A program made the position numbers and the translations under genes. A stretch of 64,000 nucleotides of DNA from Antedon mediterranea (taxonomy: Eukaryota; Animalia; Echinodermata), in NCBI RefSeq assembly GCF_964355755.1, contig NC_092671.1, positions 31,568,304-31,632,303 on the forward strand, in the 5' to 3' direction. How positions within the stretch are numbered: the first letter of the stretch is position 1; each line of letters opens with the position of its first letter. The notes below the pieces were generated by a model. The model was not told the DNA's origin and did not search any database. It saw only the letters and a program-made list of their open reading frames with translations. Positions 3,656 to 3,697 of the stretch are shown here, piece by piece.

Positions 3656-3697
<42 letters not shown>
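3656..3697 (+). other. 42-bp ectopic copy of 28S R2 target site (-41..+1) in IGS 1
   Basis: AGCGCGGGTAAACGGCGGGAGTAACTATGACTCTCTTAAGGT identical to 28S 2258-2299. Confidence 0.97.

Follow-up and report, generated by a model that had tools for sequence, protein, structure and literature searches.

Spacer copies of the R2 recognition region in the rDNA of Antedon mediterranea as putative decoys, and similar pieces in other animal rDNA spacers

The spacer copies and the resident R2 element

The window, by which we mean the whole 64,000-nucleotide stretch of Antedon mediterranea DNA analyzed here, holds a tandem rDNA array in which six 28S and six 18S genes are present along with the beginning of a seventh 28S gene, and the question it raises is why each of its spacers carries a copy of the 28S region recognized by the R2 retrotransposon. 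A search with the 42-mer that spans 28S positions −41 to +1 around the R2 nick found 12 matches in the window at up to 3 mismatches, and none in 100 shuffles. Six matches are genic, starting at 2258, 11885, 21579, 32072, 42488, and 56006; the one at 21579 has one change, at −1, and the one at 42488 is severed by an R2 junction. The other six are exact and lie in the spacers, all on the + strand and 241 nt past the 28S end (taken as the Rfam boundary), which confirms what the initial annotation of this DNA had reported. The genic source, the copies, and the sequences next to the first copy are as follows:

2258..2299, + strand: genic source, 28S −41 to +1, with the nick between 2298 and 2299 (register from the R2 junction)
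3656..3697, + strand: spacer copy of 28S −41 to +1 (R2 recognition region), unit 1, 42/42 identical to 2258-2299
3698..3704, + strand: right junction, unit 1; the 28S +1 to +3 triplet comes next but is displaced by one base, which may be a repair scar at the nick
3714..3739, + strand: T26-27 tract after the unit 1 copy
13283..13324, + strand: spacer copy, unit 2, exact
22977..23018, + strand: spacer copy, unit 3, exact
33470..33511, + strand: spacer copy, unit 4, exact
48417..48458, + strand: spacer copy, unit 5 (the R2-inserted unit), exact
57404..57445, + strand: spacer copy, unit 6, exact

In the first spacer, the one in which this was tested, no match to the rRNA unit exceeded 12 nt apart from the 42-mer itself (E 2e-18, with E 1.8 for the runner-up), in keeping with the earlier observation that it is the only substantial 28S fragment there. 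None of the six copies was occupied by an R2 insertion, again as annotated. The annotation went further in proposing that the host has fixed the site in each unit, and this was overstated: the first 300 nt after the 28S gene have 1 variable position among the six units, so that fixation across units follows from concerted evolution and the uniformity of the copies says nothing on selection. The perfect identity to the gene likewise fits a young neutral copy, its chance without selection being 0.43 at 2% decay and 0.12 at 5%.

The spacers range from 2757 to 4263 nt, and such differences are as expected of real units; they arise because the number of sub-repeats in the spacer body varies (5 to 9, with pentanucleotide microsatellites between them; window 3770-6300). 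A nine-base tandem repeat (3534-3606) precedes the first copy. Independent reads were compared over 3100-3652, the spacer up to just before this copy. One run (X7) covered the interval entirely and at high depth, a run from a second organism (X11) covered it with about 7 to 10 differences per 83 to 97 nt (roughly 90% identity), the match of a third (X12) left it at 3441, and a fourth (X2) was uninformative; no run contained the entire query, the best share being 0.76. The drop in read depth at the right end is an edge effect, present at the left end too. Within the genes, the change at −1 in unit 3 lies at 21619, and unit 4 has two changes at +14/+15 (32126-32127); 3 of the 15 variable 28S columns thus fall within 15 nt of the nick, as scars or errors.

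The array also holds an R2 element of its own, in unit 5:

42528..47059, + strand: full-length lineage-A R2 retrotransposon in the 28S gene of unit 5 (from its junctions, with the LSU hit split around the element)
42637..42700, + strand: predicted HDV-like ribozyme core in the R2 5′ UTR (motif search)
42823..46734, + strand: R2 ORF, 1303 codons stop to stop, with three N-terminal zinc fingers, Myb, RT, and RLE

Its junctions (42527/47060) are where the annotation had placed them, the upstream 28S stopping at −2 and resuming at +1, which is the canonical 28S site; the gap fits a second-strand nick 2 bp upstream (PMC12180492, in part). The last 9 nt of the element (47051-47059) equal 28S +14 to +22. 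In phmmer searches, the ORF was much closer to the R2 proteins of zebra finch (9dou, E 1.3e-194) and turtle than to that of Bombyx (8gh6, E 7e-86), which places it in lineage A. The initial annotation had argued from the recognition motifs of Bombyx R2, which belongs to lineage D. The N-terminal domains of lineage-A R2 bind only the upstream half-site, with footprints centered at −30 and −15 and a requirement for −40 to −21 (PMC11204384, in part), and upstream-only binding fits the extent of the copy even better.

Held against the canonical target of lineage-A R2, as known from zebra finch and turtle (PMC11204384 and PMC12180492, both in part), whose R2 proteins are close relatives of the resident one with its three zinc fingers and Myb domain, the window copy contains the whole binding region, both the published footprints and −40 to −21. 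Its upstream region is intact from about −40 to −15 (range from PMC11204384, in part), and so is the nick motif at −6 to +1. Unlike the canonical target, it lies outside any gene, and downstream of the nick only +1 matches 28S, the sequence differing from +2 on. The stretch at −6 to +1 is what we take to be the range of the RASIN motif. Absent from the copy is the +1 to +4/+5 match to the template tail, and R2 priming needs the tail to pair with a few primer bases just downstream of the nick (PMC12180492, in part); this pairing would be lost. An indel scar at the nick of the window copy was not significant when taken alone (28 hits in a partly completed run of 600 shuffles).

One source for such a piece would be a fossil 28S-R2 junction or ribozyme leader, left behind when an R2 insertion was subsequently lost by deletion. 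The copy does end at the nick, and R2 RNAs can carry 9 to 36 nt of upstream 28S (PMC3774820, in part). However, its 41 nt exceed this range, P1 of the predicted resident ribozyme cannot pair with −41/−40 (its candidates lie at −13 or inside the 5′ UTR), and in other species several copies continue past the nick into the 28S sequence beyond it. Sequence of the resident R2 was not found beside the copy, the best matches being 9 nt on the right (E 0.94) and 12 nt on the left (E 0.05). With no flanking sequence of the resident R2 and a 5′ end that is not the cleavage point of its predicted ribozyme, we disfavor this origin for the resident R2 and find it hardly credible.

Target-site pieces in other animal spacers

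Searching with motifs from the 3′ end of 28S retrieved animal-type loci, 99 of them from metagenomes and 4 from genome collections. The 80 loci with at least 300 nt beyond the 28S end came to 69 spacer types (124 kb) after 11 duplicate spacers were collapsed; left out were L015 (a chimeric plant rDNA contig whose 28S piece lies between GATC joins), an inverted whole 28S in L100, and a tandem 28S end in L109. Pieces of LSU 2500-2650, a region that includes the R2 nick (2567|2568 in the LSU numbering of the survey), were found in 22 of the 69 types at a score of at least 16. At the same score, rRNA pieces from elsewhere were found in 2, both from SSU about 1096-1134, and five shuffles of the 69 types gave 0 in the region and 0 to 2 elsewhere. 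Raising the score to 18 left 19 types with pieces from the region and 2 with others. Conservation does not explain this clustering, since the region accounts for only 123 of the 1138 equally detectable LSU positions. The region was carried by none of 23 mostly non-animal spacers, by our reading mostly fungal, protist, or plant and counted after one chimera was dropped (Fisher p 0.001, kin not being independent). Random 28S pieces were thus not equally common in spacers, an outcome that the initial annotation had named as one that would speak against it, and its link to R2 is well supported beyond the window: this exact region turns up in the spacers of unrelated animals, where pieces from the rest of the rRNA are rare.

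Three separate assemblies of one type (L065, L127, and L128) agree, which argues against an origin by misassembly. The pieces are nevertheless patchy. No piece was seen in 47 of the 69 types, many of these spacers being partial, nor in 5 of 6 further usable loci; two complete spacers (L069 and L124) lack one although close kin have it, and sister types differ in the strand and position of their pieces. Pieces therefore arise repeatedly and are lost, with fast turnover, a pattern that fits an arms race with transient benefit and also frequent neutral capture.

Counting the window, the pieces lie in both orientations (20 plus, 24 minus), which suits a site acting at the DNA level, and they are found between 194 and about 2500 nt into the spacer, a single spacer holding as many as 8-9 of them (L098, in both orientations). 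Those anchored on −37 to −21, which we call the upstream type, number 32 copies in 14 types with the window included, against 0 in 3 shuffles. Fifteen of the 32 (in 5 of the 14 types) stop at −41/−42, where the window reference differs from other animals at −44/−43 and can itself stop the extension; one type (L053) carries the same −41 to +1 piece as the window. Over −55 to −45, the identity of the upstream-type copies is 29%, though this stretch is conserved in genes.

Because −17 to −2 was invariant in the genes of 25 of 25 loci, changes in the spacer copies are real. The stretch from −7 to −3 was kept in 29 of the 32 upstream-type copies, whereas −6 to +4 was intact in 1 of 29. The +1 to +3 triplet was displaced in 11 of 29 copies, the window copy with its one-base shift included: 8 by loss of the two bases between the two nicks and 2 by a 2-base insertion. 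With the first copy of each type counted, displacement was seen in 5 of 14, the null expectation being 0.069 (p 0.0018, kin not being independent). A preset test of bipartite conservation, that −8 to −2 be better kept than −17 to −9, gave 8 versus 4 types and was not significant (p 0.13). Copy-to-copy identity was 0.81 to 0.95 in the core and 0.17 to 0.80 in the flanks, a difference inflated by how the copies were picked.

These results also bear on a host function unrelated to R2, in which the copy would serve as a site for a Myb-type factor (a Pol I terminator or fork barrier) or, once transcribed as part of the 3′ spacer, as a helix 69 RNA element. Its place in the window, at a constant distance past the 28S end and between a pyrimidine tract and the T26-27 tract, would suit such a role, the hairpin (helix 69) of the copy folds in the spacer context, and the copy presumably contains a motif like the yeast Reb1 site. 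Pol I terminators of the Reb1/TTF-I type stand in a fixed orientation downstream of 28S. This holds in the window but not across species, where both strands and many positions are used; in addition, the same sequence inside 28S cannot terminate transcription, the non-animal spacers are without the piece, and the part that is kept shifts with the host group toward R4 or R1 sites. We regard a function of this kind as very unlikely.

The shift emerged when host groups were placed on a tree of 28S ends, with group names that we assume from rRNA signatures. None of the 28 nematode-like types carried the upstream type, whereas 9 of the 20 clitellate-like types and 4 of the 21 others did; for a +1 to +15 core, the counts were 6, 3, and 2 types, respectively. 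The right ends of the nematode-like pieces fall mostly at +25 to +33, near the site of R4, whose insertions lie 28 bp downstream of the Pokey site (PMC3849761, in part); these pieces could alternatively be the downstream half-site bound by lineage-D R2. In L082 and L096, a +51 to +76 piece ends near the R1 site, at +74 (PMC2048585, in part). Another locus (L089) has an R2 joined at +1 (E 3e-64) together with four near-perfect spacer copies of −38 to −18, which sit inside repeats whose flanks are 64 to 73% alike.

A Drosophila-like rDNA that contaminates a bacterial assembly (L154, on the minus strand) was identified by its match to a Drosophila 28S primer (PMC1215480, in part) and by its layout of 95-, 330-, and 240-bp repeats (PMC11139327, in part), and its R1 site is occupied by an RT element. 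The first three ~95-bp spacer repeats of this locus (oriented 5328-5590) match −2 to +33 (29/35), −1 to +39 (34/40), and −1 to +19 (18/20), and the first two match +60 to +70 as well (10/11 and 10/10). Among 177 rRNA windows, each of the three that scored best covers the R2/R1-site region. The likeness of the 95-bp repeats to 28S may reportedly have been noted in Drosophila spacer papers of the 1980s.

The 18S pieces of L075, L109, and, weakly, L125 (about 1096-1145 in window numbering) form a second hotspot, ending just before what we take to be the R8 target site. An 18S-inserting element such as R8, which resides in 18S (PMC5035012, in part), may have this hotspot as its target. The hotspot does not significantly resemble the R2 site in sequence, as 42 of 200 shuffles did as well. 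In L125, a 5S rRNA gene (5614-5732) lies in the spacer right after the 28S piece. Other features of these loci concern the genes themselves. In a nematode-like 28S (L149:286-4200, oriented), a 1305-codon ORF of an RLE-type non-LTR element is inserted about 606 nt downstream of the R2 site, accompanied by a short target duplication, at a position where we know of no described insertion site. The 28S starts abruptly at +134 after non-rDNA in L084, L109, and L110 (two related types), a possible further insertion site; in L113 it starts at −24, preceded by 3.1 kb of non-rDNA in which there is no long ORF.

Possible readings: selected decoys, neutral debris, or nick sites

As the best reading of these sequences, at about even odds (a probability of roughly 0.5), we take the window copies to be R2-derived, binding-competent, insertion-poor putative decoys. 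The copy spans −41 to +1 in an array that holds an intact lineage-A R2, whose protein would bind the copy but, with the 28S match ending one base past the nick, would prime insertion poorly. The origin of such copies may lie in the cutting of 28S by R-element endonucleases, a nearby spacer taking up the cut or protein-protected end, which would spread through the units by concerted evolution. Copies of this kind would then be kept since binding without productive insertion would halve the share of R2 particles that reach the real 28S, and spacers with many copies would dilute the particles further. Several findings would favor decoys: the recurrence of the region in animal spacers against the rarity of other rRNA pieces there and its absence from the mostly non-animal set; left ends at −41/−42, an extent that fits the binding region of the protein; broken cut sites beside a kept −7 to −3; and pieces that appear to track the elements of their hosts, in nematode-like versus clitellate-like types and in L089 and L154. 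The initial annotation had offered the copies as decoys or landing pads, and the former idea stands better than the latter, with cut sites so seldom intact and all six window copies empty.

The same pieces might instead be neutral debris, an account that shares its origin with the decoys and differs only in selection. R2, R4, and R1 break 28S; cut or R2-protected ends, or scarred 28S pieces, would be captured in repair and hitchhike to fixation by concerted evolution, and R2 might bind them without their being selected. Right ends do fall at known cut positions (−3 to +1 in the upstream type, +25 to +33 near R4, and +69 to +76 near R1), the second-strand nick being at −2 (PMC12180492, in part). 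Once both nicks are made, R2 protein remains on the upstream DNA (PMC12180492, in part), which could set the left end without selection, and R elements duplicate 13 to 28 nt of 28S at their junctions (PMC3774820 and PMC2718515, in part). The patchy and fast gain and loss and the nonsignificant test of bipartite conservation also agree with it. On the other hand, a very high capture rate would be needed for a third of the spacer types, with as many copies as in L098; positions −7 to −4, which lie outside the anchor, were changed in 2 of 13 types each, against 3 to 11 for −17 to −8 (a post hoc comparison); and L089 keeps its four cores amid diverged repeat flanks. We consider neutral debris possible, if on balance unlikely.

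The annotation had also suggested that R2 nicks the spacer. As a domesticated nick site, the copy would be cut without priming, and unequal exchange would maintain the rDNA number while 28S is spared. The window copy keeps −6 to +1, so that nicking may occur here; lineage-A R2 still nicks with templates that fail to support priming (PMC12180492, in part), R2 breaks start rDNA magnification in Drosophila (PMC11139327, in part), and the small indels seen at the nick in other species point to cutting of the spacer copies. Yet 28 of 29 upstream-type copies are without an intact −6 to +4, many lack −2/−1, and L089 retains only −38 to −18. Recurrent nicking should, moreover, leave scars, and the six window copies are uniform. 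The suggestion is thus weakened, and we think a nick site of this kind quite unlikely.

Several observations weigh against the decoy reading itself. Most types have no piece and turnover is fast, the bipartite test was not significant, a perfect match is expected of a young neutral copy, and R2 did insert in the window array despite the copies. Moreover, the R1-site copy of Drosophila ananassae, in units with R1 insertions, would by analogy be a landing pad rather than a dead end (PMC2718515). More broadly, animal spacers may be a recurrent, lineage-matched store of disarmed targets of R2, R4, R1, and 18S elements, the Drosophila 95-bp repeats included, in which sites captured from an element's own cuts would be kept by selection and act as DNA decoys. 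We put forward this selected target-mimicry defense tentatively, at somewhat less than even odds.

Precedents and meaning

The initial annotation had supposed the arrangement to be undescribed. This does not hold entirely: a 22-bp copy of the R1 target is known from the IGS of D. ananassae, in units with eight R1 elements, and no role was proposed for it (Stage and Eickbush 2009, PMC2718515). The window is of the same kind, a short 28S piece with an R-element target inside the intergenic spacer of rDNA units. Unlike that case, an R1 site noted in passing in one species, it concerns the R2 site, in all six units and unoccupied, and it is part of a pattern that spans 22 of the 69 animal spacer types, with cut sites that are mostly broken. 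A search of main-text passages from openly available articles found no account of a general pattern or a decoy role; the word "decoy" is absent from a 2024 review (PMC10946416) and a 2026 review (PMC13580325), and the portions consulted of PMC10319768, PMC3036644, PMC12869080, and PMC13188248 held nothing on either. The feature is real, and it is one case of a wide, apparently unrecognized pattern with one published precedent.

Two other systems are related. R2 5′-junction duplications and R1 site rearrangements also involve short upstream 28S pieces copied by the element's mechanism (PMC3774820 and PMC2718515, in part), but such duplications are 13 to 28 nt long and abut an element in 28S, whereas the window piece has 42 nt and stands free in the spacer with no element beside it. 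The rDNA magnification driven by R2 in Drosophila is alike in that R2 endonuclease on rDNA can serve the host; there, however, the breaks are taken as genic, with no spacer target invoked (PMC11139327, in part).

Should the pieces prove neutral, they would still mark the positions that R-element proteins cut and the stretches that these proteins protect, and they are natural variant libraries of the R2 site that would be useful for R2-based gene insertion. They also point to unknown target sites, such as the 18S region in three spacers. The matter bears on how hosts cap their R2 load while retaining the element over hundreds of millions of years: a decoy in each repeat, if true, would scale with rDNA copy number and need no small RNA. 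The function of the spacer pieces is putative and directly testable in Drosophila, where the first spacer repeats appear to carry a downstream half-site together with the R1 site (L154) and where R2 also drives magnification.
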